Source of the DNA: Deltaproteobacteria bacterium TL4
Lineage (GTDB): Bacteria > SAR324 > NAC60-12
Reading direction: 5' to 3'
DNA length: 23,226 nt
Assembly: GCA_051382335.1 (NCBI GenBank)
Contig: JBBCAX010000222.1
Coordinates: 1-23,226, forward strand
Position numbers and translations under genes: made by a program. Below the pieces are notes generated by a model. That model did no database searches. It was not told the origin of the DNA and saw only the letters and a program-made list of their open reading frames with translations. Of this stretch, positions 1 through 23,226 are shown in pieces. Numbering within the stretch: position 1 is the stretch's first letter; every line of letters starts with the position of its first letter.

Positions 1-164
1 GTCTTCCTTCAGATTCCTCATTGGCTTGCGACACTCGTTGGTTCCCTCTGTTGCGGCACCTGTCCCAAGTTTCTTTAGACACCCTTGACTCTGACTACAT
101 TTTCCCTCCTGTCGGGGTAATGAGTGGACTTTCACCACCAAGTTAAACGCCATGCCAGGCGCAC
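1..164 (-). ncRNA. Group II intron (subgroup IIC-like), 5' end / domain I, truncated by the window edge
   Basis: Minus strand from 164 reads GTGCGCCTGGCATGGCG...GGTGAAAGTCC...CAAGGGTGTC...GGAATCTGAAGGAAG. This is the GUGYG 5' boundary plus domain I blocks in the same order as the Oceanobacillus iheyensis IIC intron (recalled: GUGUGCCCGGCAUGGG...GGUGAGAGUCC...CAAGGGUGUC...GGAAUCUGAAGGAAG). Confidence 0.93.
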
Positions 165-237
165 AGCGAGGGCATCTTGCCCTCCGGTGAGGGCAAGATG
201 CCCTCGCTCCCAGGGAAAAAACTTTCCTGGACAGCTA
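165..237. repeat. Right part of a REP-hairpin miniature element (family A, copy 1); 5' exon of the intron
   Basis: Perfect 20-bp inverted repeat 165-184/189-208 (AGCGAGGGCATCTTGCCCTC-cggt-GAGGGCAAGATGCCCTCGCT). Each arm contains its own 7-bp palindrome. It is followed by CCCAG and ends in CTGGACAGCTA (227-237), the inverted counterpart (10/11) of TAGTTGTCCAG at 271 and 23033. Confidence 0.8.
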
Positions 238-1430: not shown

Positions 1431-4400
1431 TTAGCGAATTTTCCCCACAATCAAGGTGACGTCATCTTCTCCTGGCTGGTTTCCGTAGTGGCGCATGGCG
1501 GCTTCAACAATCCGGTTTCTGATTTCCCTGGCTTCAAGTCCATGACATGTTTGAATGACATGCTTGAGGCGATTATTTCCAAATTCCACTCGTTGATCAT
1601 TATAATTTTCAGTCAACCCATCCGTGTACCAAATAATGACATCATCTTTCTGTAATTCAACAAATTCAAGTTTATAGACACTCCGTTTGTCATATCCCAG
1701 CGGGTTTGAACGGGTAAACAGGGGTTTGATATACTGTGTCGTTTTTTTATTTTCAACAGGTTGAATAAAGCCTTCGGGGCGCCATAAATAACAGGGGTTA
1801 TGTCCCGCGCCGGAATAGACCATGACCTTCTTATCCAAATTGATGGCTGAATACAGAAAAGTCATGGCAAAGGACTTTTCTGTGGTTGAACACAGTAAGG
1901 CGTTTAAGATCTGTAAGATATAAGAGGGATGAAGGAACTGATAACGCAAGGTTTCTTTAGTGACAATGCGACGGCGATGTTCTTCCATGGAATGAAACAC
2001 GCTGTGAGCCATGGCAGTAATCAAGGCGGCAGAAACACCATGTCCTGTGACATCGCCGATCAGGACATCCAGTCGATTATCTTCCTGGTAGTAATGGTAG
2101 TCGTACCAATCCCCGCCTGTTTCTGAGGCGGATTGATAAAAACTGGCGATATCGATTTCTTCAAGTTGAGGCTCAGCTTGAGGAAGTAATAACTCCTGGA
2201 CTGTATGCGCTGTTTGTAATTCATGAGTTAAACGTTCGCTTTTTGTTAAGGCTTCAACCGCTTTTTTAAATTTCAGATGAGTCTGTACACGAGCCAGGAG
2301 TTCATCTTTATGGAAAGGTTTCGCTAAATAATCATTGGCTCCACTTTGAAGGCCTTCCACCAAATCCCGAACCTGGTTTTTCGCGGTTAAAATCACAATC
2401 GGCAAGGTGACTTGGTTATGGGTTTGGCGGACTTTTTTACAGACTTCATAGCCATTCATCCGGGGCATCATGAGATCAACTAACATCAAGTCGGGAAGTT
2501 GTCCTTGCTCTTGTGTTTGTTCCAGGATTTCTAAAGCTTGAAAGCCATCATAGGCGGTCAAGACATGGTAATGTTGCAAACTCAGATGGTTTTTTAATAC
2601 CTGAATATTGACAGGCTCATCATCAACAACCAGGATCGTGGGTTGATTCTCATGTTCCGTCAGGGTGTCGCTGAGATGTTCGGGCACCGTTGCCAAGGTT
2701 GGTGTCGATTCTTGCTCCGGAGAGGAAGTCCTTACGGTTAAGGTTGAATAACCGCTTTCTCGACGGTTTATCGCTTCGCGTTCTTGTTTTTTGGAGATAG
2801 GGAGCGTGAAAGAAAAAGTCGAGCCTTGTCCCTCTTGACTTTCCACAGTCAACGAACATCCGTGTAAGTCCACTAACTGTTTTGTGACCGTCAAGCCCAG
2901 ACCTGTTCCTCCATATTTACGGGAACTGGAGCCATCAACCTGTTCAAAAGAGCGGAAAATCCGCTCTTGTTGGTCTGGAGGAATACCAATCCCTGTATCA
3001 GAAACCAGAACTTCAATAAATGCGTCATCCCGTTTTTTAGCGTGTACTGAGACTTCTCCCTCATGCGTAAACTTGATCGCGTTTCCAATCAAATTAAATA
3101 AAATCTGCTCCAACCGATCCTCATCAGCCCAGGCCAGAGGAAGCTGGTCGGTAAGGTAGTTGACTAAGATTACAGCTTTTGTGATGACCAGGGGTTGGAT
3201 CAACTCAAAAACGACCTCAACCACGCCTTTAACATCCACCGGTTTGAATTGGAGTTTTAATTCGTGGTGCTGTATTTTTGAAAAATCAAGGATATCATTT
3301 ACCAATTTAGAAAGCCTTTTTCCGCTTTGGATGATCATTCTGAGGTTTTCCGCCTGTATTGGGCTCAAGGCGCCTCCAATTCCATCCAGCAGTGATTCCC
3401 CCAAGCCAATGATTCCATTTAAGGGGGTTCTTAATTCATGTGACGTATTGGCCAAGAATTCATCTTTGAGCTTATCGGCCTGTCGCAGTTGCTCCAGCGC
3501 CAGTTGGAGTTCTTGCGTCTTTTCATCCACTTTTTGCTCAAGCCCTGTATTGATTTTTTGGATTTCTTCATTGGCAAGTTCCAGTTTTTGATGAGCGGCC
3601 TGGATTTGTTTTTGTTGAAGCTGACCCTCTTCGTAAAGTTTTGCGTTTTGGATAGCCGTCGCGATTTGATTCACATACCACTGGATTTTTTGAACCGCTG
3701 AGTCATCCATTTCAAAAGGGGTCCGGCTGTTTGCCAAAATAATCACGCCAATGTTTTTTTGCTGGACTTGAAGAGGCAATAATAAACAGGCCTGAACAGG
3801 GGTGAGTTGAAAGAGTTTCGCGTCAACAGGAAGAAAGTGTTTGAGAACCTCAGGGGTTATCGGAGACACATAATAGGGCTCATTGCTGAGGAAGGTTTCG
3901 CACAGAAAACTGGTAAAGCCTTGGAGGGGAATGCGTGTCCCGTAAAAAACTTTAAATTCCTCCTCATTCCCTTCGTGCCCATAATACTTGGTGGCGACCA
4001 GATCATTCGTTTTTGAATCCCAAAGAAAAAGTCCTGATTGATCAAAGGAAATAATGGGTTGTAAGGCTTCGGTCACTGAAGACAGGACGGTGTCCAGATC
4101 CAAGGTTGAATTAACGGTTTGTACGACTTGATTGGCGTAGGTGATTTCCTGTTCTTTAAGCTGAGTCTTCTGCAACGCCCGCTCCAGCTCCCTTGTGCGT
4201 TCCGCGACTTTTCTTTCAGTGACCGTATAAACCCGTGCGTTTTCAATGGAAATCGCAATTTGGGAAGAGAGTAAGTTTAACAGTTCCAGCCGATTTTTGT
4301 TAAAAACGCCTTGGGAGAGATTGTTTTCAAGATAAAGGATGCCATTGATTTGCTTGTGATGCAGAATGGGCATACAAAGGATCGATTTAGGATGATAGGC

Positions 4401-7400
4401 GAGAATATAGTCATCATTGGTAAATTGCCCCTGTTGAGACGCACTCTCCAAAACAACGTTTTCATGTGTTCTTGAAACATAATGGATGATGGAGACAGGA
4501 AGCAGGTTGGAGCCTTTTTCCTGAGAAGCGTTTAGGGGGATTGACTGTAAGACCGCGACTTCTTTTTTGTCAATACTGCCTTCCGCTTCAATAGTCCACT
4601 GACCCTCTTTGTTCAGGAGTAAGTAGCCTTTTTGTGCCCCCGCGTTTTCAATCACAATGGTCATCAAGTTTTTGAGGAGTTTATCAAAGACGATCTCACT
4701 GGAAATACTTTGGGATGCCTTCATCACGGTGTTTAAGTCCAGCAAATTAGAAATGGACTCATCCGATGTCGCTGTTACGGAGAGGGACTCTCCGGGAGCG
4801 GAGATATCAAAACTTTCAAGCTTTCGGGTAAAGCGTAATTCGGGGTAAGCGGCTTCCAGTTGCTGTACTTTTGCGTGGGCTCCCCAGTTTTGATAGAGCA
4901 TCAACGCATTTTCGAAAAAAAGCTGAGCGATCGTGTTTTGTCCTACTTCCAAGTAGAAACGCGCGGCAAAGTTATTAGCCAAGGCTTCATCTTGAATAAA
5001 GTGATGCCTCTTTGCCCCCTGAATCGCCTGAGTATAAAAGTGCATGGCCTGTTCCTGTTTTCCCAGCACCTTAGCCCGTTCAGCCTCAATTAAATCCAGG
5101 CGATGTTGGTGATTTCCCGGCACATACGACGTCCAGTTTTTAAGTTTTTTATAATTTTTAGCGACGTTTCTGAGCTGCTGCCTTTGCTCTCCTTTGGGTA
5201 AATGAGGATATTTTGCCAAACGTGCGAGAGCGTCATAAAAATAAAACAGGGGGATATGAAAGGTTCCTTGCAGGGCGTCAATTTGTGTTTGCGCTTCCTC
5301 CGCATATTGAATCGCATGTTCCTGATTTTCAAAGAGGATACTCAAGAATAATTTGTGAAAAGGAATCAAAAAAAGCGCTGTTCTGTCATTGGCTTCAAGG
5401 TGTTCCTGGTAGTGTTCCTGCTCATCATAAATGTCTCCTTGTAAAGCGAGGCAGGGATCTCCCTCATGCCTCAAGTTTTGTACCACCTGACGGAAGATTT
5501 CATTATAATTGGTGTTGATCACTTGTTTATAATGCCGAATATCCTGGGTGTAGTTTTCCATTTCAAGCGCAAGTTCCTGTAAGGGTTCCCCCGCAAAAAA
5601 GGCATAAGCGCAATAGACGTGGGCGGAAAGAGTCGCATACTCAATATCTCCTAATTCCAGACCGAGTTGGTAGTTTTGCAGAAGCAAAGGCAATGACTCC
5701 CTTAAAGGATGTTTCCAATGGTGAATCAGTCCACTGATCACAAAACCTGTCCGGGCTTTTAATTTTTTGGCAGAGGGTCTGTCACTAAAGGCCTGGGCTA
5801 ACTCTCCAAAACGGTAACCTTCCTCTACCTTGCCAAAGGCGCTGCATAAGATCATTCCGTATCCTGCAAAGGTCAAAGGCGTTTCAGAAGAACAGCCGTA
5901 TTTGATCGTAAATTCAATGGATTTAAACGCCATAATGGGTAAAAGATTGGGAGACGCTTTATGCGCTGATTGCCCAAAACTTCCCATTATTTGTGTGACG
6001 GCCGTCATTACAGGGTCAGCATGATCCTGTAACAATTTCAATTTATGAATAGGGTTGCGACGGAGCAAATACCGCGTTTTGATAAACCCTGTTATTACCT
6101 GGAAAAGATTAGGTTGTAGGGGGTAATACACGCCTAGCGGTTTTAAATAGTCAAGGCCTTCCTTGATGGCATCTAAAGGACGGTTTTTCGCTAAATAACT
6201 TTGGATCAAAACCTCCACCGCTTTGACTTTGTCGAGATGTTGTTGGGCGTGACTGAAAAGAATCGCACATAAGGATTCCATGGCTTCGAAATCAGTTTTT
6301 AAATAGGCGGCTTCTATGGCTTCTTCATAAAGTTGAAGCGTTAGTTCATAGTTTGTTTCCCATCGCGTTTCAGGTAAAAGCTGAATTCCAACGGTGAAAT
6401 GATGAGCTGCGGATTCGTAAGCAACCGCCTCCTTGGCTTTTTTTCCTGCCCTTAAATTCAATTCAGCCAGTTGGCGTTTTTCAGCCTCTTCCTCAATTAA
6501 AGCTTTTCCCTCATTGAGCTGAATCACCACATTGAACAGATTTTCTTCCAGTTCTTTGCTGGAATAACTTTTTAAAAGGGCCCGTCCAATTTTAAGATGA
6601 ATAGGCGTTCGTTTCGCGGGTTCAATTAACTCATAAGCCGCTTGTTGAATACGGTCATGAGCAAAGTGGTCCGAAGGATCGAGGTAGCCATGTTTCGGGG
6701 TTAATTCTGAAGGCCGTATTGTCCGAAAAATAGCGTGAAGCTCATTATCCGGAATTAGTAATCCTTCTTCCACCGCAACCCACAGGTCTTTTGCGATGGG
6801 ACTGAGGTCTTTTTCTATCACGGTTCCCAAAACACGAAGGTCAAAGGAGTGTCCCACGCAAGCACCAATACTCAAGGTTGTTTGAGTCACTTCAGGCAGT
6901 AATTTAAGTTTGCTGACCATTAACGAGACAACATTACTTGAAGTTTCTTTTGCCCGGATTTGCTCCAAATTCCAACGCCATTCCTGACGCTCCAAATCAA
7001 ACCACACCCCTTGTTGTTGATAAAGCGATTTAAATAGTTCCTGGACGAAAAATGGATTTCCATGGGTTTTTTCAAAAATCAGCGCGCTTAATTCAACAAT
7101 AGACGCGACAGGACAATGCAGCGTTTCCGCAACCAGTTGATTCAGATCTTTTTTTTCCAAGGGTGATAACGTTATGGTTTGAAGCGCAGAACTGATTTTT
7201 CCGATCTGAGCCAAGGTGATGAGGAGCGGATGGGGTGCGGTCACTTCATTATGTCGGTAGGCACCGATAACGAAAAGATACCGATTGTGTTTATCTTCAA
7301 TCAGGTCATAGATTAAGCCCAGTGTTGAGGTATCGGCCCACTGTAAATCGTCCAGAAAAATAACCAGCGGATGTGTTTTTCCGGCAATGGCACTAATGAA

Positions 7401-8729
7401 TCTCAGAACCGTTCTTCTGAATCGGTTTTCATTTTCATGAAGCCCCACTTGAACCACCTCAGGTTGGGGGCCGAGAACCAGTTCCAAGTCGGGGAGAACG
7501 TCGATCAAGATTTGACCATTTTCTTCAACCGCCGCCAAGATTTTCGTTTTCCACCCCTCTAACTCTTCTGGAGTCCCCGTCAAAAGTTGTTTTATAAAAT
7601 CATCAAAGGCTTGAATAAAGGCGGCATAAGGTTCATTACGCTGGAATTGACCAAATTTTCCGGCAATAAAATTACCGCTGAATTGGATGATCGGTTTGTA
7701 AAGCTCATTAATGAGTGAGGATTTCCCAATCCCCGAATAGCCTGCAACCATTACCAGTTCGGTATTTCCTGTGCTGACACGGTCAAAGGTTTCAAGTAAT
7801 AACTGTATTTCCGCGGAGCGTCCATATAACTTCTGGGGAATTTGAAAGTGATTGACGGTATCTTTTTGTCCCAATTGAAAATGGGGAATGAGTTGAGAGG
7901 CCTTGTAATGCGATAAGCATATTTCCAGATCAGCCTTTAACCCTATCGCGCTTTGATAACGATCTTCCGCGTTCTTCGCGAGCAGTTTCATGATCACCTC
8001 AGAAAGAGGCCTCGGAAGATCGGAGCGCAATTCGTGAGGCGGAATGGGTTTTTTCGCAATGTGAAAATGGACTAATTCCATCAAATCTTGAGACTTGAAA
8101 GGAAGGTCTCCTGTGAGCATTTCATAGAAAGTGATGCCTAAGGAATAAAAATCGGTTCGATAGTCCACATCTCGATTCATGCGTCCGGTTTGTTCTGGCG
8201 CAATGTAAGCGAGTGTTCCTTCCAACGTATTCAGGTTGCTGATGATCGGCGTTTCTCTGGAGAGTTGAGACGCAATCCCAAAATCAATCAGTTGAATCTG
8301 CTCCGTTTGAGAATTATAGACAATATTTTCAGGGTTAATATCCCGATGTATGATTTGTTGATGATGCAGCGTTGCCAGACTGTCCGCGATTTTAAGGCTA
8401 AGCCTGAGAAACGTAATGAGGTCTAGCGGGTGCTCCCTGTTGGCCAGAAAATGTTTGAGTGAATTACCGCCAATATCCTCCAAAATCAGGATTTGTTGAT
8501 TTTGATAATGAATTAAATCGTAGGCTTGGATGATTCCATCCCCATGTTTGACACGGGTCAGTTCATATTCATGTTTTAAACGAGCCGTCTGCTTCGGAAA
8601 AAAATGTCCTGGATGCATGGCTTTGAGAATCACAGGATTTCGATCTTTATCTCTAAAGGCACGATAGATGGTACTGCGGGAACTTTCATAGAGAGCTTCA
8701 ATAATTTGGTATCCAGGAACCTGTCCCAT
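1431..8729 (-). CDS. Multidomain Ser/Thr kinase - AAA/STAND ATPase - helical region - GAF - GAF - HisKA/HATPase - receiver - SpoIIE/PP2C phosphatase, 2432 aa
   Basis: Kinase: VILK, HRDINPEN, DFG, YIAPEQ. ATPase: Walker A GYSGIGKS, Walker B FLDDLQW. Two GAF-like segments. Histidine kinase: SHELRTP, NLIGNAIKFT, DTGIGI, GGTGLGL. Receiver: VVDDE, VDLMMP, KPF. PP2C: GGDWYD, GDVTGHG, YTDG, DDVT. RBS GGAGA. Confidence 0.95.
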   Translation of the reverse strand: MGQVPGYQIIEALYESSRSTIYRAFRDKDRNPVILKAMHPGHFFPKQTARLKHEYELTRVKHGDGIIQAYDLIHYQNQQILILEDIGGNSLKHFLANREHPLDLITFLRLSLKIADSLATLHHQQIIHRDINPENIVYNSQTEQIQLIDFGIASQLSRETPIISNLNTLEGTLAYIAPEQTGRMNRDVDYRTDFYSLGITFYEMLTGDLPFKSQDLMELVHFHIAKKPIPPHELRSDLPRPLSEVIMKLLAKNAEDRYQSAIGLKADLEICLSHYKASQLIPHFQLGQKDTVNHFQIPQKLYGRSAEIQLLLETFDRVSTGNTELVMVAGYSGIGKSSLINELYKPIIQFSGNFIAGKFGQFQRNEPYAAFIQAFDDFIKQLLTGTPEELEGWKTKILAAVEENGQILIDVLPDLELVLGPQPEVVQVGLHENENRFRRTVLRFISAIAGKTHPLVIFLDDLQWADTSTLGLIYDLIEDKHNRYLFVIGAYRHNEVTAPHPLLITLAQIGKISSALQTITLSPLEKKDLNQLVAETLHCPVASIVELSALIFEKTHGNPFFVQELFKSLYQQQGVWFDLERQEWRWNLEQIRAKETSSNVVSLMVSKLKLLPEVTQTTLSIGACVGHSFDLRVLGTVIEKDLSPIAKDLWVAVEEGLLIPDNELHAIFRTIRPSELTPKHGYLDPSDHFAHDRIQQAAYELIEPAKRTPIHLKIGRALLKSYSSKELEENLFNVVIQLNEGKALIEEEAEKRQLAELNLRAGKKAKEAVAYESAAHHFTVGIQLLPETRWETNYELTLQLYEEAIEAAYLKTDFEAMESLCAILFSHAQQHLDKVKAVEVLIQSYLAKNRPLDAIKEGLDYLKPLGVYYPLQPNLFQVITGFIKTRYLLRRNPIHKLKLLQDHADPVMTAVTQIMGSFGQSAHKASPNLLPIMAFKSIEFTIKYGCSSETPLTFAGYGMILCSAFGKVEEGYRFGELAQAFSDRPSAKKLKARTGFVISGLIHHWKHPLRESLPLLLQNYQLGLELGDIEYATLSAHVYCAYAFFAGEPLQELALEMENYTQDIRHYKQVINTNYNEIFRQVVQNLRHEGDPCLALQGDIYDEQEHYQEHLEANDRTALFLIPFHKLFLSILFENQEHAIQYAEEAQTQIDALQGTFHIPLFYFYDALARLAKYPHLPKGEQRQQLRNVAKNYKKLKNWTSYVPGNHQHRLDLIEAERAKVLGKQEQAMHFYTQAIQGAKRHHFIQDEALANNFAARFYLEVGQNTIAQLFFENALMLYQNWGAHAKVQQLEAAYPELRFTRKLESFDISAPGESLSVTATSDESISNLLDLNTVMKASQSISSEIVFDKLLKNLMTIVIENAGAQKGYLLLNKEGQWTIEAEGSIDKKEVAVLQSIPLNASQEKGSNLLPVSIIHYVSRTHENVVLESASQQGQFTNDDYILAYHPKSILCMPILHHKQINGILYLENNLSQGVFNKNRLELLNLLSSQIAISIENARVYTVTERKVAERTRELERALQKTQLKEQEITYANQVVQTVNSTLDLDTVLSSVTEALQPIISFDQSGLFLWDSKTNDLVATKYYGHEGNEEEFKVFYGTRIPLQGFTSFLCETFLSNEPYYVSPITPEVLKHFLPVDAKLFQLTPVQACLLLPLQVQQKNIGVIILANSRTPFEMDDSAVQKIQWYVNQIATAIQNAKLYEEGQLQQKQIQAAHQKLELANEEIQKINTGLEQKVDEKTQELQLALEQLRQADKLKDEFLANTSHELRTPLNGIIGLGESLLDGIGGALSPIQAENLRMIIQSGKRLSKLVNDILDFSKIQHHELKLQFKPVDVKGVVEVVFELIQPLVITKAVILVNYLTDQLPLAWADEDRLEQILFNLIGNAIKFTHEGEVSVHAKKRDDAFIEVLVSDTGIGIPPDQQERIFRSFEQVDGSSSRKYGGTGLGLTVTKQLVDLHGCSLTVESQEGQGSTFSFTLPISKKQEREAINRRESGYSTLTVRTSSPEQESTPTLATVPEHLSDTLTEHENQPTILVVDDEPVNIQVLKNHLSLQHYHVLTAYDGFQALEILEQTQEQGQLPDLMLVDLMMPRMNGYEVCKKVRQTHNQVTLPIVILTAKNQVRDLVEGLQSGANDYLAKPFHKDELLARVQTHLKFKKAVEALTKSERLTHELQTAHTVQELLLPQAEPQLEEIDIASFYQSASETGGDWYDYHYYQEDNRLDVLIGDVTGHGVSAALITAMAHSVFHSMEEHRRRIVTKETLRYQFLHPSYILQILNALLCSTTEKSFAMTFLYSAINLDKKVMVYSGAGHNPCYLWRPEGFIQPVENKKTTQYIKPLFTRSNPLGYDKRSVYKLEFVELQKDDVIIWYTDGLTENYNDQRVEFGNNRLKHVIQTCHGLEAREIRNRIVEAAMRHYGNQPGEDDVTLIVGKIR

Positions 8730-15477: not shown

Positions 15478-15709
15478 GGCTACCCCCTTAACCCCCATGA
15501 GACAAGTCTCACAACGAAGCATGAAAGTAATTGGTAGGCCGGGATTACATGTCCGGCAAAATGAGGGGCACGTAGTCCCCTTCTACCACTTTCTTACAAA
15601 GCGGGACATTGGTAGGCGGGGATTACATGCCCCGCTTTTCTGATCGTTGAGGTTGCCGGACACGTAGTTCCGGTTTACCATCGAGGTGTCCCGGCTTAAG
15701 TGGGTAGCC
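15478..15709. repeat. Cluster of four GTAG-type REP palindromes (two inverted doublets) bracketed by a 14-bp inverted repeat
   Basis: GGTAGGCCGGGATTACATGTCCGGC 15533-15557 (+); GGTAGAAGGGGACTACGTGCCCCT 15587-15564 (-); GGTAGGCGGGGATTACATGCCCCGC 15611-15635 (+); GGTAAACCGGAACTACGTGTCCGGC 15679-15655 (-). Flanks are GGCTACCCCCTTAA (15478-15491) and TTAAGTGGGTAGCC (15696-15709), 13/14 inverted. Confidence 0.8.
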
Positions 15710-15969: not shown

Positions 15970-18900
15970 TCACGGCAAGGCTGAATCAGAACTGGGGTCG
16001 GAATCATTTTGACTGATCTCAGTAACCGTCAGGTTGATTGATCCTTTGGCAAATTCTTGCAGCGTGACTCTCGTTGCGGTAATGAGGACCTGGCCTTTAG
16101 CGAGCCCTGTGACTTTCCCCGCGGTGTCTTTACTGGCGCTGACTTTTGCGATGATGGCGTCAGCGGTTTTCCATGTCACCACTTTGGTCAGATCGATTTC
16201 CTGATCTGTATAGACACCAAGAGCTTTCAATTGTACGGTGGCCTCTTCCTCAGAACCACCAACAGCGACGCCTGGATTTGCCGGTTCAATACGTATGCTC
16301 GTTAATACGGCACCTGATACGGTCAGTTCGGCGCTGCCTTTAATGTCATTTTCCCCCTCTTTTTTGGTTGCTGTAATCGTGGTCTTCCCAACCTCTACGG
16401 TTAACGCGACGCCTTGGTTTTCCGCTGAATTCTCAATGGTGGCAATACTTTGATCTGTGGAACTCCAGGTGACATAGGGGGTGATCTCATATTTGTTGCC
16501 ATCTTCATAAGTTCCACTGGCTTTAAATGCTTGATTCAAGCCTTTCGCGATATTTGGACTTGGGGGCGTCACGGTAATTGAAAGCAATTTTGAGGTAATT
16601 ACAGTTAATTGCATGTTCAGCGCGGTTCCCTCTTTGGTCAACACAGAGAGGGTTGCCGTTCCCGGGCCCATCGCCTTGATTTCTCCTTTTTCTGATTCTC
16701 CATTGGACACTGTCGCAACACTGATATCAGAGGAACTCCAAGAGGCGGTATGGGTCAAATCAACGGTGGAGTCATCGGAATAGATCCCCTTCAGGGTCAA
16801 CTGGGATTTTAAGCCCACAGGCAGAGTTAAGGTGGCAGGAAAAATAGCGACTGAAGAAAGTTCCGCGTCAGTAACGGTAAGCGTTGTTGTTTCGCTGATT
16901 TGAGTTTTTACATCCGTTGCGATGATCATGACTTCACCCGTTTGATCGGTCGTTTCAACAAGACCTGGGCTATCTGTGCTTAACGTCGCAATGGTTTTTT
17001 CGGCAGAACTCCATTCCACAAAAGGCGTCATATCCTGATTACTTTCGTCGGAGAAGACGCCCGTTGCTGTCAATGGCACACTGTTTCCTTTTGCGATTTT
17101 GGGATTCGTAGGGGTTACCGATAAAGATTCCAAGGTTGCGTCGCTCACCATAATGGTTCTGCTTGTACTGTGTTTCCCGGGCCACACACAAAACTGGAAC
17201 AAATAGGCGGAACATTCTTTTGCGCTAAGGGTGACTTCTCCTGCTTTGAGCGCTTTAACCAAGCCTTTTTCTTCTTTTGTATCCACTGACGCGATTTTTT
17301 TATCCGAACTGCTCCAGGTTACGGATTCGCTCAGATCACGGGTGGAGTGATCCGAATAGAGGCCTGTGGCCTTAAACCATTGTTGGGTTCCTTTGGCTAA
17401 AGTCGCGTTCTGTGACCTCACCTCCATTGACGTGAGCTCTATATCGTTCACCGTCAGTGTTGTCGATTGAATTAAAGCTCCCAGAGTTGCTGTAATCGTT
17501 GTCGTCCCTTTTTCGAGACTGGTCACCCAGCCTTTGGTTCCTTGTGCGGTTTCAACGGTTGCGACCGCAGGGGCTGTTGAGGCCCAATGAACCAAGGTGG
17601 TGATATCCTGTGTGGATTTATCTTCAAAAGTTCCAACGGCTTGAAACTGTTTGGTGGCCCCTTTGGGAACGGACGAATTTCCCGGAAGGATCGCAATCGA
17701 GCTGAGCGGAGAAGCATCAGTTACTTTGAGTTGAGCAGTTTGACTCATATCTCCAAGGCTTGCGGTTATGGACACATCGCCCGCTTTAAGGCCTTTAACA
17801 ATTCCTTTGCCTTCATCCTCGTTGTTGATTGTCGCAAGGCTGGTATCTAAAGAAGTCCAGGAAACCTGTTTCGTGATGTTTTGTTTGGTATCATCCGTGT
17901 AAGTTCCTGTCGCCGTCAATTGTAAGGAAGTTTCCTGAACCAGATTGCTTTTTTCAGGCGTGATTGCGATAGAAACGAGGGTCGCCCCTGTGACCGTTAA
18001 TTCAGCGGTACTTTCAACCTCGCCTTTACTTGCTGTAATCACACAGGAGCCCTCCAAGGTTCCTGTCACTTGCCCCACCTTGTTACCGCTGCTGATGATG
18101 GAGGCTATCTTGGGATCGGAACAACTCCAGGTTACCGATTTTGTAATATCCTGAGTAGTTCCATCGCTATAGATTCCCGTTGCGGTTAAGTTCTTATTGG
18201 TATTTTTTGCCAGAGCAAGACTGGGAGGATCAATGGAAATCGAAGCCAGTGTCGCATTGGTAACGGTAACGGTTGCTGTCACTTTAATCGTACTTTTTCC
18301 TCCAAACACACAGCCCAGAAAACTACATTTGGTTGCGGTAATGATGGTTGCACCGGCTTTGTGAAGGGTTGCGGTTCCCTTGTCTCCTTTCGTATCGCTG
18401 ATTGTGAGAACCGCTTTGTCGGAGGAGCTCCAATTTACCGATTCGGTAACATCTTCCTCACTATTGTCGTTATAAAGACCTGTCGCAATAAAGGAGTGAA
18501 TCGTATCTTTGGGTAAGGAAGCACTGGAGGGCGTAATAGTGATTGAGGTTAAAACAACATCCACGACGGTAAGTAGTGTGGACGCGCTTATTTTATCCAT
18601 TTTCGCGCTGATGGTCAATACTCCCGTTTTGGTGGTTGAGACCAGCCCTTTTTCCTGAGCCTGGCCACTAAATTGAGCCACGTTGGTATTTGAGGATTCC
18701 CAAGTCACCGATTGCGTAAGATCCTGTTGACTCCCATCCGAGTAAGTTCCCGTAGCTTTAAACTGTTGCGTTAATTTTTGTGCGATAGTGGGCTCCGAAG
18801 GTTCTATTTCAATACTTTGCAACGTCGCGGCCGTAACCGTAAGGGTCACACTGCCACTGATCTTTGCCTTCGTCGCGGTAATGATCGATGTCCCCGTGTG

Positions 18901-19335
18901 GACACTTGTTGCCAAGCCTTTGACTCCTGTTCCTCCCTCCGGAATTTCAATAGTCGCGATATTGGTATCCGAAGAGGTCCAGGTAACTGACGCCGTGAGG
19001 TCTTCTTGAGTTCCATCATCAAAAATACCTGCCGCTTTGAATTGAAGTGTTGTCCCTTGGGCTATGTTCGGATCCACAGGCGTTACTTTGATAGACACAA
19101 GCACATTGGCCGCAGGCTTGCTGTCATTGGTTGTATTGTTTTGAGTGGGTGTTTGGGTGTCACTTGTATTTTGTGAATTCTCATTCGCGGCTTTCGTTCC
19201 TGAGGAACTGGATGAAGAGTCCTCACTTCCTGAGGTCAGACCGAGCTCTTCACAGCCCAGGGCAAAAAGCATCATGATTCCGAATAATAAAGAAAGGCTT
19301 TGCATGATTGTTTGTTTTAATAGGGTTTTTTCCAT
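15970..19335 (-). CDS. Surface lipoprotein with 11 bacterial Ig-like group 2 (Big_2, LigA-like) domains, 1121 aa
   Basis: Lipobox ALG|C28, a Ser/Thr/Asn-rich tether, then 11 copies of about 90 aa with A.G.Y.D...D(L/I/V)T..V.W.S. RBS AGAGGAG. Confidence 0.92.
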   Translation of the reverse strand: MEKTLLKQTIMQSLSLLFGIMMLFALGCEELGLTSGSEDSSSSSSGTKAANENSQNTSDTQTPTQNNTTNDSKPAANVLVSIKVTPVDPNIAQGTTLQFKAAGIFDDGTQEDLTASVTWTSSDTNIATIEIPEGGTGVKGLATSVHTGTSIITATKAKISGSVTLTVTAATLQSIEIEPSEPTIAQKLTQQFKATGTYSDGSQQDLTQSVTWESSNTNVAQFSGQAQEKGLVSTTKTGVLTISAKMDKISASTLLTVVDVVLTSITITPSSASLPKDTIHSFIATGLYNDNSEEDVTESVNWSSSDKAVLTISDTKGDKGTATLHKAGATIITATKCSFLGCVFGGKSTIKVTATVTVTNATLASISIDPPSLALAKNTNKNLTATGIYSDGTTQDITKSVTWSCSDPKIASIISSGNKVGQVTGTLEGSCVITASKGEVESTAELTVTGATLVSIAITPEKSNLVQETSLQLTATGTYTDDTKQNITKQVSWTSLDTSLATINNEDEGKGIVKGLKAGDVSITASLGDMSQTAQLKVTDASPLSSIAILPGNSSVPKGATKQFQAVGTFEDKSTQDITTLVHWASTAPAVATVETAQGTKGWVTSLEKGTTTITATLGALIQSTTLTVNDIELTSMEVRSQNATLAKGTQQWFKATGLYSDHSTRDLSESVTWSSSDKKIASVDTKEEKGLVKALKAGEVTLSAKECSAYLFQFCVWPGKHSTSRTIMVSDATLESLSVTPTNPKIAKGNSVPLTATGVFSDESNQDMTPFVEWSSAEKTIATLSTDSPGLVETTDQTGEVMIIATDVKTQISETTTLTVTDAELSSVAIFPATLTLPVGLKSQLTLKGIYSDDSTVDLTHTASWSSSDISVATVSNGESEKGEIKAMGPGTATLSVLTKEGTALNMQLTVITSKLLSITVTPPSPNIAKGLNQAFKASGTYEDGNKYEITPYVTWSSTDQSIATIENSAENQGVALTVEVGKTTITATKKEGENDIKGSAELTVSGAVLTSIRIEPANPGVAVGGSEEEATVQLKALGVYTDQEIDLTKVVTWKTADAIIAKVSASKDTAGKVTGLAKGQVLITATRVTLQEFAKGSINLTVTEISQNDSDPSSDSALP

Positions 19336-19393: not shown

Positions 19394-22300
19394 TTACGAA
19401 TCGTTATCCTGATTGCTTAAACTGACATCATCGGCATCAATCACGCTATACTTGGAATCGACAGAGATGGCCCGACCCAACTGAATAGTATAATTTACAG
19501 TGCCATCAACTTGAGCATCATCCTTCCCTGTGATGGTAACGGTTTGAACCGTGCTCCAATTGGCAGAAGTAAACACCAGACTTGAAACGGATACCGTTCC
19601 TTCAGCGGGATTGCTGCTGCTGATACCGATGGTCACATTTGCCGTTGGCTCACTATCAAGGACAACGGTAAAGGTTGCCGTTCCCCCACCTTCAGTCGTC
19701 GTCATATTACCAGCAGCATTGACGGTAATTCCCGCGGTATCGTTGTCCGTGTTACTCAAACTGATATCAGCCGGGTTGATAGCGCTATAGTTGGCATCGG
19801 TACTGGTTGTTGGTCCTAAAATGATGGTATAACTTTGATCTCCATCATCCACCAGATCATCCACACCGATAATGGTTACATTTTGAGCAGTGTTCCAATT
19901 GCTGGTAGTGAAAGTCAAGGCCACAGACACAGCGCCTTCTGTTGCGTCTGAAGTGGCTAGAGCTATCGTCACATTCGCGGTGGGCTGACTGTCAAGGACA
20001 ACGGTAAAGGTAGCCGTTCCCCCACCTTCAGTCGTCGTCATATTGCCAGCGGCACTGACGGTAATCCCCGCAGTATCGTCGTCCGTGTTGCTGACACTGA
20101 CCACACTTGGGGTGAGGACATAACGGGGATCCCCACTAGTTGTTGGTCCCAAGGTGATGGTATAGCTTTGATCTCCATCATCCAGCAGATCATCCACACC
20201 GGTAATAGTTACATTTTGAGTTGTATTCCAATTGCTGCTGGTGAAGGTCAACGACGCGGGAGACACGGTTCCCTCCGTTGTGTCTGAAGTTGCGATGGGT
20301 ACTGTAACATCTGCGGTTGGTTGAGTATTCAATCTGGCCGTAAAGGTTGCTGTTCCGCCTGTCTCGGTGGTATTATTACTGAGTGCGCCAACCACCACTC
20401 CAGGGGTTTCATCGACATTGGAAAGCGTCAGATCCGCGGGATCCAGGATATTGAAGATCGCACTTTGGCTGCTGGAGCCCAATTCAATATTATAGCTTTG
20501 ATCCCCATCCATCAAGATATCGTCGACGCCTGTAACGGTGACGGTTTGAAGGACATTCCAGGTTGCGGCTGTAAACGTGAGACTGGACGCACTCACCGAT
20601 CCTTCTCCGGGATCACTGCTGACCACAGAAATAATGACATCCGCTTCAGATTTCGCCGTAAGTCTGATGGTGAATGTCGCGGTTCCTCCAGATTCGGTGG
20701 TATTGCCGCTAAGGCTGCTAATGGTAAATCCCGCCACCTCGTCATCAACATTGTTCACACTGACATCACTCGGATCAATCCTATTGTAATTCAAATCATC
20801 GGACGTGATCACACCCAATTGAATTTGATAGGTTTTGGTGCCATCCCCATAGTCATCATCTTGCCCCGTTACTGTGACGGTTTGGGGGGTATCCCAGTTA
20901 TTCGTAGTGAAGGTTAAACTTGCGGGGCTAACGGTTCCTTCGTTCGTATTACTGCTGGTGAGGGGAAAGGAGACATTGGCTGAGGGTTTACTTTGGAGTT
21001 GCACGGTGAAGGTGGCTTGTATCCCGATTTCCGAGGTGCTTCCCATTCCATAAGTGACTTGTCCGCCGGATGTTGAAACACCAACACCGCTAACGACAAC
21101 TCCGGCCGTTTCGTCATCCAGATTAGTCAAGGTGACATCGCGGGGATCCACGCCATTAAAATTCGGATCCGCTGAGATTGCCGCACCTAAAACAATGGTG
21201 TAAGGTTGATTTCCGTCAAGCACATCATCATCAACCCCGGTGATGGTTAGCGTTTGATCCACATTCCAATTGTCTGTTGTGAACATTAAACTTGAGGGGG
21301 AAACCGTGCCTTCCGTGGTCAGATTACTGGAAACCGCAATACTCACATCACTTTCAGGCTTGCTGGTGAGTCTAATTGTCAGGGTGGTGCTGGTTCCTGT
21401 TTCCATCGTACTCGCGACACTACCCAGCGTAAATCCTGCGGTATCGTTGTCAAGATTGGTTAAAAGCACGGCTCCCACAACCACGCCCTGATAATCAGGG
21501 TCTGAGGAAGTGGCCGAGCCCAGCAGAATTTTATAACTTTGATTTCCATCTTTGCTGACATCATCAAGGCCTGTCACTGTAACGGTTTGAGGGATGTTCC
21601 AATTTGCTGAAGTGAAGGTAAGACTGGAGACACTGACCTCACCTTCTGTGGTATCATTGCTGGCAATTGTCGGTATGGTTACATCAAAGAGGGGTTTACT
21701 GCTCAGGACCACGGTAAATGTCGCTGTGGCTCCAGACTCTGTGGTACTCAAAACACCATAAGTAATGTTTCCCCCACTTTGCGTGCTTTGCCCGCTGATG
21801 ATGAAGCCTGCCGTTTCATCATCAATATTGATAAAATCCACATCAGCGGGATTGAGACCGTTATAACCGGAGTCACTGGATTCCGCGGCAGCCAGGATGA
21901 TGGTGTAACTTTGATTTCCATTCGCCTCACTGTCATCAACTCCTGTGACACTCACACTTTGAGGTGCGCTCCAATTGGCTGGAGTGAAGGTGAGGCTTGA
22001 GGGGGTTACCGTACCTTTCTGAGTGTTATTACTTGAAACCGCAATGGTCACATTCGCCGCGGGTTTGGTTGTCAATTGAACGGTAAAGATTGCGGTTCCT
22101 GCGGACTCCAGGGTATTTCCCGAGAGGCTGACTATGATAAAACCTGGAACCTCATCGTCCATATTGACAGCTTGTACATCCTTAGGATCCAGACCTTGAT
22201 AATTGGGGTCATCAGAAAGTGCGGCAGACAGTTGGATCGTATATTTGACGTGATCATCAGCAATTTTATCGTCTACTCCTGTAACGGTCACTAATTGTTC

Positions 22301-22909
22301 AATATCCCAATTGCCCCCGCTAAAATCCAACTTGCCAGGATCAACAGTACCTTCGTTCGTATTGCTGCTTGAGACCAAAATCCGCACATTGGAAATAGGT
22401 TCGCTGGATAATTTGACTGAAAAAGTTGCGGTTAAGCCTTTTTCTGAGGTACTTCGACTCAATTCACTAATCACAACCCCCGCCGTATCGTCATCCAAGT
22501 TCTTTAAAGTCATATCATCGGGGTCCACGTTATTATACTCACCATCTTCTGATTCCGAATTTCCCAGGATTATCTTGTATTCCTGGTCTCCATCCTTAAT
22601 GTCATCATCTCTTCCGCTCACCAGGACGACTTGTTTCGAATTCCAGTTATTGGGAGTAAAAGTCAATTCTGAGGGGGAAACCATTCCCTCATCCGTGTTA
22701 CTGCTGAAAACGGGAATTTTCACATTGGAGGAAGGCGATGTTTTTAATTTCACAGTAAAGGTCGCAACGCCTCCTCCTTCTGTGGTGTCACCACTGATAG
22801 TTCCCACACGAATCGCCCCTTTTTTAGTGCCTGTAGGATCAGGATCATTACATCCAAGCATAAAGAAGCTAAGCAAAATAAGTAAAAACTTAAATTGTTT
22901 GATTTTCAT
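19394..22909 (-). CDS. Surface lipoprotein with 10 acidic Calx-beta-like beta-sandwich repeats, 1171 aa
   Basis: Lipobox MLG|C20, then 10 repeats of about 112 aa: T.E.GGTATFTV.L...P...V......EG.VS..SLTFT..NW...Q.V...G.DD...DG...Y.I.L......D..Y....P.D....N.D.(D/E). Confidence 0.9.
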   Translation of the reverse strand: MKIKQFKFLLILLSFFMLGCNDPDPTGTKKGAIRVGTISGDTTEGGGVATFTVKLKTSPSSNVKIPVFSSNTDEGMVSPSELTFTPNNWNSKQVVLVSGRDDDIKDGDQEYKIILGNSESEDGEYNNVDPDDMTLKNLDDDTAGVVISELSRSTSEKGLTATFSVKLSSEPISNVRILVSSSNTNEGTVDPGKLDFSGGNWDIEQLVTVTGVDDKIADDHVKYTIQLSAALSDDPNYQGLDPKDVQAVNMDDEVPGFIIVSLSGNTLESAGTAIFTVQLTTKPAANVTIAVSSNNTQKGTVTPSSLTFTPANWSAPQSVSVTGVDDSEANGNQSYTIILAAAESSDSGYNGLNPADVDFINIDDETAGFIISGQSTQSGGNITYGVLSTTESGATATFTVVLSSKPLFDVTIPTIASNDTTEGEVSVSSLTFTSANWNIPQTVTVTGLDDVSKDGNQSYKILLGSATSSDPDYQGVVVGAVLLTNLDNDTAGFTLGSVASTMETGTSTTLTIRLTSKPESDVSIAVSSNLTTEGTVSPSSLMFTTDNWNVDQTLTITGVDDDVLDGNQPYTIVLGAAISADPNFNGVDPRDVTLTNLDDETAGVVVSGVGVSTSGGQVTYGMGSTSEIGIQATFTVQLQSKPSANVSFPLTSSNTNEGTVSPASLTFTTNNWDTPQTVTVTGQDDDYGDGTKTYQIQLGVITSDDLNYNRIDPSDVSVNNVDDEVAGFTISSLSGNTTESGGTATFTIRLTAKSEADVIISVVSSDPGEGSVSASSLTFTAATWNVLQTVTVTGVDDILMDGDQSYNIELGSSSQSAIFNILDPADLTLSNVDETPGVVVGALSNNTTETGGTATFTARLNTQPTADVTVPIATSDTTEGTVSPASLTFTSSNWNTTQNVTITGVDDLLDDGDQSYTITLGPTTSGDPRYVLTPSVVSVSNTDDDTAGITVSAAGNMTTTEGGGTATFTVVLDSQPTANVTIALATSDATEGAVSVALTFTTSNWNTAQNVTIIGVDDLVDDGDQSYTIILGPTTSTDANYSAINPADISLSNTDNDTAGITVNAAGNMTTTEGGGTATFTVVLDSEPTANVTIGISSSNPAEGTVSVSSLVFTSANWSTVQTVTITGKDDAQVDGTVNYTIQLGRAISVDSKYSVIDADDVSLSNQDNDS

Positions 22910-22991: not shown

Positions 22992-23032
22992 GAAGTTCTC
23001 TTTCCTTTTGATTCTCTTTTTTGGAAGAGGTC

Positions 23033-23059
23033 TAGTTGTCCAGATAAATTCCTGCTGGG
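23033..23059. repeat. Left part of family-A miniature element (copy 3); 3' exon of the intron
   Basis: TAGTTGTCCAGATAAATTCCTGCTGGG is identical to 271-297 and abuts the intron 3' boundary. Confidence 0.8.
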
Positions 23060-23226
23060 ATCGAGTCGGAGGCTCCTCTCGGAGCCGTCCGCTCACAGAA
23101 CCGTGCTTACGGGTCCGTACACGGCTCCTCACAATACGGTCTTCCCTACGGATAAAGGAAGCCAGTGGGGTAAAGCAAAGTCGGAGATACACTTCAGTCC
23201 CTGGAGTCGGAACCATTCATTGTTCC
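23060..23226 (-). ncRNA. Group II intron 3' end (domains V and VI), truncated by the window edge
   Basis: Minus strand domain V: GAGCCGTGT-ACG-GACC-CGT-AA-GCACGGTTC (30 nt, short IIC-type length). Domain VI: GAG-CGGA-C-GGCTCC-GAGA-GGAGCC-TCCG-A-CTC with the bulged A seventh from the end. Terminal ...CTCGAT fits the AY boundary. Confidence 0.93.
23129..23224 (-). CDS. ltrA: C-terminal 31 aa of the intron-encoded reverse transcriptase/maturase (partial; absent from the ORF track)
   Basis: NNEWFRLQGLKCISDFALPHWLPLSVGKTVL*, with the stop immediately before domain V. NxWFxxxGL resembles the end of IIC maturases. No HNH/Cys endonuclease domain follows it. Confidence 0.7.
   Translation of the reverse strand, partial: NNEWFRLQGLKCISDFALPHWLPLSVGKTVL

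Follow-up and report, generated by a model that had tools for sequence, protein, structure and literature searches.

A class C-like group II intron in REP hairpins of a SAR324 bacterium, with guide loops that fit its target

The window, by which is meant the whole 23,226-nucleotide stretch that was analysed, is the entire contig C222 of the 6.59-Mb, 445-contig assembly of Deltaproteobacteria bacterium TL4 (the host genome, G000). Its genes include one at 1431–8729 (−) for a 2432-aa multi-domain sensor, which combines protein kinase, AAA, GAF, histidine kinase, receiver and SpoIIE phosphatase domains, and two for adjacent large surface proteins at 15970–19335 and 19394–22909 (−), which contain eleven Big_2 Ig-like repeats and Calx-beta-like repeats. 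Between genes, at 15532–15680, there is a 28-nt inverted repeat that is possibly another REP family. Each extremity of the contig is occupied by one end of a group II intron on the minus strand, and the second surface-protein gene begins 150 nt downstream of the 3' end of the right-hand intron.

At the left, positions 1–164 (−) are the 5' part of domain I of an IIC-type intron (copy 1), which begins GTGCG and runs past the contig end. It is preceded by IBS1, the sequence CGCT at 165–168 (−), which is the full complement of EBS1 AGCG. The splice site is adjoined by the distal REP hairpin at 168–184 (−), GAGGGCA-AGA-TGCCCTC, with a 7-bp stem and an AGA loop, the last pair of which takes the C of CGCT. 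This hairpin is part of an interrupted, REPIN-like REP doublet at 165–240 (−), comprising a perfect 20-bp inverted repeat (165–184/189–208), a CTGGG foot (209–213) and an outer flank that reaches about 240. The opposite strand of the same doublet retains an uninterrupted target junction, CGCT/CCCAG, at 205–213 (+), where the slash marks the insertion point. A second REP copy at 268–337 (−) is partly decayed and its junction is intact at 301–293. Genes on the same strand lie upstream of copy 1, and their transcription could extend into it.

At the right, domains V and VI of copy 2 span 23060–23129 (−) and display a short domain V, an AGC triad and a bulged A in domain VI; they match Rfam RF00029 at 23129–23060 (−) with 48.4 bits (cut-off 40 bits). 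The 3' exon at 23030–23059 (−) is the rest of a REP arm plus its flank, with IBS3, a C, at 23059. The final 31 codons and stop of the intron reverse transcriptase (RT) frame fall at 23129–23224 (−); the frame is open in the window, whereas the copy on contig C396 has a stop within this stretch. The original prediction had drawn a 5' boundary at 164 (−) behind a hairpin ending in CGCT and a 3' boundary at 23060 (−). Both are borne out: the first is seen in the sequence, and at the second the RF00029 match ends and is followed by CCCAGCAGG. In addition, CGCTCCCAG, which had been obtained by joining the two exons, is found at both 205–213 (+) and 301–293 (−). The joined exons thus reproduce the intact junction as a nine-mer but do not represent a true empty site, because the two ends most likely come from different intron copies, as judged from flanks that fall in different REP sub-families. 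A single circular molecule with one intron was considered and is unlikely, given the chromosomal-type genes and the mismatched flank sub-families.

BLAST of the host genome finds four near-identical 5' ends (C222, C396, C103 and C42) and three near-identical 3' ends. A REP arm ending in CGCT precedes 4/4 of the former, and CCCA comes next in 3/3 of the latter. Both exons are kept on C396 (1246 nt) and C103 (660 nt), where the junction is identical to that of the window. These two complete copies carry internal deletions: the RT of the C396 copy is mostly deleted and contains a stop, and the C103 copy has no ORF. No intact RT of the window family was found among the assembled contigs, which hold RT fragments on C200 and C74. 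Insertion occurs at a single nucleotide across at least two REP sub-families and both arm types, and the flanks outside the REP element differ between copies. Occupancy is low, with an intron at 4–5 of about 180 loci. It had been supposed that other copies would avoid U-tailed terminators and this proved correct, as every assembled copy is in a REP and none follows such a terminator. A terminator reading of the hairpin itself was rejected when a terminator scan did not call it.

The REP family has 176 loci, spread over 105 contigs, and 294 intact arms in total, of which 176 read CGCT/C at the junction and 61 read CGTT/C. The element is an inverted doublet with extra flanks, about 105 bp overall; it is intergenic in the places examined, namely the window, C396, C103 and C42. 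On C336, doublets at 2635–2692 and 3649–3706 flank a RAYT-like Y1_Tnp domain at 3128–3358. Here, the Y1 domain and the doublets are in frame inside a gene for a 1206-aa DUF1156 (DNA methylase-type) protein (L027, C336:1352–4972), so that the REPs are translated, and a second Y1 gene, flanked by a long tandem repeat, is found nearby on the same contig. The REP foot is GGAG where RAYT REPs carry GT[AG]G, and the intron enters the complementary strand between the GG and the AG of this foot. No mention of a GGAG foot was found in the accessible parts of PMC6006769 or PMC8266576. Among 88 genomes of the host's phylum, both the REP pattern and a close intron relative occur beyond the host in G009 only.

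REP arms make up 176 of the 8884 CGCT/C sites in the genome. If only these five bases were recognized, finding 4/4 junctions in REPs would have p about 1.5e-7, and therefore the association is not due to chance. A generic hairpin site was then defined leniently, as CGCT/C with a perfect stem of at least 6 bp just upstream. The genome holds 226 of these, 124 in REP arms and 102 elsewhere, and under a model of any hairpin plus CGCT/C the same 4/4 has a probability of 0.55^4 (p about 0.09).

Guide loops were located by comparison. Genome contigs were searched with the RT of a sister family from the host, and the best 80 of 537 confirmed stretches were taken. Their upper tier consists of 43 loci with 49–65% identity, most at 55–65%. 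The 29 upper-tier loci with a placeable 5' end were aligned with five G000 and G009 sequences, giving 34 introns, and every alignment column was scanned for complementarity to exon positions. In this set, drawn from the best 80 of 537, pairing to exon positions −1 to −4 falls on four adjacent columns (33/34, 25/34, 31/34 and 17/33 introns), and pairing to +1, the EBS3–IBS3 contact, falls on one column (21/27). The scan reached −7 and gave no pairing signal at −5 to −7, nor is there a separate EBS2 hairpin in the consensus fold. In this fold the guide columns lie in the loop of a hairpin whose stem covaries, and delta–delta' is paired in 34/34 of these best-80 introns; the fold was used instead of a single-sequence fold of domain I, which was no better than shuffles (z −0.01). 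When two near-duplicates and one intron with too short an exon are left out, the remaining 31 introns form 96 of the 124 pairs that are possible; 10,000 shuffles give a mean of 38.5 and a maximum of 60, the introns being kin and hence non-independent. The 31 introns, within the best 80 of 537, carry 25 different EBS1 loops.

In copy 1 of the window EBS1 and EBS3 lie beyond the contig end and were taken from C396 and C103, whose copies are 98% identical to it. The window family reads EBS1 = AGCG and EBS3 = G, a perfect match to the CGCT/C of the REP. These are the bases that had been anticipated for the two loops, and both were read from columns located by covariation. Folding the distal arm alone leaves GCT and the next base mostly unpaired. 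At equilibrium the whole doublet pairs IBS1 and IBS3 fully. For the clade at large, IBS1 falls within the stem at 9/21 sites vs 7/20 other sites of the best-80 set, a weak difference.

The original prediction assigned the intron to group IIC. As set out in the accessible part of PMC1702495, this group is defined by a short domain V, a CGC triad, an AGGAA motif, a short EBS1 and an EBS3 with no EBS2. Domain V is indeed short, its distal stem being 2 bp below that of IIA/IIB, which appears as a four-base gap against the Rfam model. The AGGAA motif is present as GAAGGAAG in the epsilon' bulge of the consensus fold, and EBS1–IBS1 (3–4 bp) and EBS3–IBS3 occur with no EBS2. The triad, however, is AGC in the window and in 31/34 clade loci (3 unparsed), whereas 27/27 other loci of the best-80 set have CGC. 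The target likewise departs from the terminators and attC sites of the group, since a hairpin is present but is a REP arm without a U-tract. The intron is thus IIC-like as a working assignment in its domain V, AGGAA motif and EBS features, and not in its triad or its target. Within the best 80 of 537, clade introns are about 2030–2050 nt, vs about 1880–1950 for terminator class C.

A quick maximum-likelihood tree of 79 RTs was built after 6 frameless loci, 2 short rows and 5 duplicates were left out. Of the upper-tier rows, which stem from the best 80 of 537, 39/40 form one branch (SH-aLRT 100, length 0.66); L074 is outside it, on a long branch. This clade spans multiple phyla and joins the terminator-type and attC-type RTs in an internally unresolved group (SH-aLRT 95) in a tree with two long outgroups; it might instead belong with g6, U1 or U2. 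In this tree it stands beside the terminator and attC class C, on a separate branch. The window family is placed by fragments: its C-terminal RT fragment scores 57–114 bits with members of the clade and no more than 47 with the other RTs, and the C200 fragment of the thumb/DNA-binding region is 39–60% identical within the clade vs 21–38% to other class C. Clade RTs have Pfam RVT_1 and GIIM and no endonuclease domain, and the nearest structure is GsI-IIC. In the E. rectale structure an RT loop touches the tip of the stem. Between its anchors this loop measures 26 residues in 32/33 clade RTs, six fewer than in that structure, and the short form is shared by the attC-type RTs of the host genome. 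Divergent class C ORFs (D.p.I1, Al.or.I2 and Pe.th.I1) are named in the accessible part of PMC3552965, and a table in PMC8919778, also available in part, labels 2023-nt Methylomonas methanica introns as class C. The clade may already be lumped under class C, to judge from the length that these share with its Methylomonas members.

Targets across the clade differ from those of other class C introns. In the best-80-of-537 set, at least three Ts among the last six exon bases occur at 2/32 clade sites vs 25/30 others, and a GT[AG]G-footed hairpin occurs at 8/26 clade sites (0.47 expected) vs 2/28 others (0.32 expected); the remaining 18/26 clade sites of this set fail the GTAG-hairpin rule. The GTAG repeats at five clade sites are multicopy in 5/5 genomes, with 4, 23, 5, 70 and 14 matches against 0–2 for controls. 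A pattern for another REP type, the target of L043, had no match in the 5 genomes tested. In the chromosome-scale assembly G091, 6/10 copies are at one REP position, three of them with an identical upstream flank, and G098 has REP-like sites for 2/5 copies. The 13 copies of G097 end in GCG or GTG and few are REP-like; L067 and several G097 sites are in sequence that looks like attC by eye.

The sister family of the host genome (EBS1 GCTT) has 5/5 of its 5' junctions in REPs, at other positions. Two are in the spacer of the window REP and three are in another REP family, of the GTAG type, which has 68 matches. The latter three, truncated 5' ends on C69, C183 and C365, have near-identical upstream flanks of up to 200 nt and are one duplicated event. 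On C405, near 5675 (−), tandemly arrayed units of 41–51 nt follow an intron of the sister family and represent a third type of repeated target. About 30 small host contigs also carry a large family of IIC-attC introns (TTGT/T, CGC triad), some of them in tandem, which suggests extensive integron cassette arrays in the host. Overall, three class C target types and 51 domain V matches were observed in this one genome.

Closer relatives of the window intron are found at other hairpins. In metagenome runs X1 and X2, the matches listed include introns about 96% identical in domain I that have two other hairpin-like sequences ending in GGCT upstream; EBS1 and EBS3 are unchanged among the 40 matches listed. 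The G009 intron, with 86% identity, has AACG as its EBS1 and lies behind an unrelated hairpin that ends in GGTT. G009 carries 4 copies of the window REP, yet its intron sits elsewhere. On G009 contig C40, an ORF-less relative with EBS1 AACG (L033) is located between hairpins that may resemble IS200/IS605-family ends. A domain I pattern, too strict to cover the clade, had no match in viral or metagenome contigs, and neither did the junction patterns.

Taken together, these data argue that the intron has probably spread by recognizing a hairpin followed by CGCT/C in single-stranded DNA, a rule that the REP happens to fit. Homing to a REP palindrome, as first proposed, is upheld as regards the location in REPs and the match of the guides. 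Specificity for the REP family is inseparable from recognition of any hairpin with CGCT/C, because REP arms account for 124/226 such sites and relatives of about 96% identity occupy GGCT hairpins.

From known IIC biology, a complex of intron RNA and endonuclease-less RT would bind the DNA hairpin by shape, and EBS1 and EBS3 would pair with the CGCT/C directly after it. Reverse-splicing into single-stranded DNA would take place at the replication fork, and the inserted RNA would be copied from a nascent DNA primer. Since the equilibrium fold of the whole doublet buries IBS1 and IBS3, the RNP would have to catch the distal arm alone, through transient folding at the fork, or else invade or open the stem base. 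The REP would be used since it is the commonest and strongest hairpin with CGCT/C and offers harmless intergenic DNA. Within the clade, EBS1 would drift freely and repeatedly come to fit the REP family of the host. By analogy with GTAG, splitting of the GGAG foot would likely spoil the arm for the transposase. In the solved IIC complex, as described in the accessible part of PMC10190682, the RNP binds the DNA stem by shape and pairs EBS1/EBS3 at a target with about 12 bp plus a spacer. The target stem in the window is 6–7 bp and abuts IBS1 without a spacer, which counts against the proposed explanation.

An unlikely, more demanding version is that homing is dedicated to REPs, with the RT thumb/DNA-binding domain or the RNA reading REP features beyond the hairpin and five bases. 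All 4–5 sites are REPs despite the 102 non-REP sites that the lenient rule offers, the thumb/DNA-binding region of the clade (C200 fragment) is strongly diverged and its stem-tip loop is shortened, all of which would suit such a reader. However, the generic model already yields 4/4 at the p given above, the short loop is shared with attC-type RTs of the host, and both the X1/X2 introns and the G009 intron use other hairpins, the latter in a genome that has the REP on offer.

Passive copying, in which one or two entries were followed by duplication of the REP and its cargo through the Y1 transposase or recombination, is quite improbable. It draws its strength from odd exons. A perfect-palindrome 5' exon is shared by 3/4 copies (window 165–208, C103 and C396) vs 0/206 strand-wise readings of free doublets, and the outer flank, present in 265/293 free arms, is missing from 2/3 of the 3' exons. 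Furthermore, the sister family displays just such copying, with three copies behind one upstream flank. The odd exons could also reflect template switching or exon co-conversion at insertion, or a preference for rare perfect doublets, as well as shared ancestry; the insertion sites may be non-independent, or altered on insertion. Against passive copying, the C42 copy and the right-hand copy of the window are in other sub-families and arms at the same nucleotide, and therefore at least three independent events took place. Flanks beyond the element differ, and EBS1 and EBS3 fit the site at every base, in a pairing that covaries throughout the clade. Finally, joining of intron ends to a repeated palindrome by short-read assembly, which both window junctions invite by lying within 170 nt of contig ends, is hardly credible, as the C396 and C103 copies are contig-internal with both exons and have changes of their own no more than 15 nt from the junction, a falsely joined end would not fit EBS1 and EBS3, and the chromosome-scale G091 has the same pattern.

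Recognition of a hairpin plus CGCT/C leaves room for a bolder idea, which we hold tentatively, as possible rather than probable. The clade may be an undescribed group II subclass that is the sister of class C and is marked by an AGC triad and a remodelled domain for hairpin binding. It would have abandoned terminators and specialised on the single-strand hairpins of HUH systems (REPs and REPINs), with a four-base guide retuned in each host to the local REP. This would make REPs a third target class beside terminators and attC, and the intron an RNA-guided parasite that disables REP arms. The 25 natural guide variants with matching targets among 31 introns of the best-80-of-537 set suggest that hairpin-plus-guide recognition is more programmable than thought. 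Natural covariation in the clade can also be used to test the reading of DNA shape by IIC RNPs, and the clade is a starting point for compact retro-integrators that could be retargeted to intergenic repeats, where they would do no harm. The finding links two mobile systems that use single-stranded DNA, namely group II introns and REP/RAYT.

The success of class C introns is explained by their hiding behind terminators. Their targets are given as terminators and attC in the accessible parts of the reviews PMC4424553, PMC7306698 and PMC12584367, to which PMC3898094, available in part, adds phage attachment sites. A full-text literature search, with several key IIC papers outside its scope, found no description of a group II intron that targets REPs. 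A table in PMC1525189 records REPs close to only 2/9 copies of a P. putida group II intron, which that paper does not list with its associated elements.

Terminator class C (B.h.I1, GsI-IIC and the E. rectale intron) resembles the window clade in its short domain V, AGGAA motif, 4-nt EBS1, EBS3, lack of EBS2, hairpin upstream of IBS1 and endonuclease-less RT with GIIM, and the closest solved structures are GsI-IIC and the E. rectale maturase. It differs in that the clade has an AGC triad, a GC-rich and highly variable EBS1, no U-tract, a short stem without a spacer, and RTs that form a clade of their own, in which the thumb/DNA-binding region has diverged. IIC-attC introns are alike in targeting a repeated, non-terminator hairpin built by another mobile system, but have their own RT branch, a CGC triad and a fixed TTGT target, where the window family uses a REP doublet. 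On the REP side, the host doublets, which are intergenic, number more than 100 and flank a Y1 domain, resemble REP/REPIN-RAYT systems, and the REPs within a coding frame resemble what the accessible part of PMC6006769 describes for TnpA-REP subclass 2.4; the host REPs are set apart by the GGAG rather than GT[AG]G foot and by extra flanks that bring them to about 105 bp. A parallel in behaviour is to ISPpu9, ISPpu10, ISPa11, ISPsy8, IS621 and IS1397, all copies of which are at one REP position (‘type 1 association’, PMC1525189). These insertion sequences employ DNA transposases, whereas here an RNA-guided retroelement occupies the REP.
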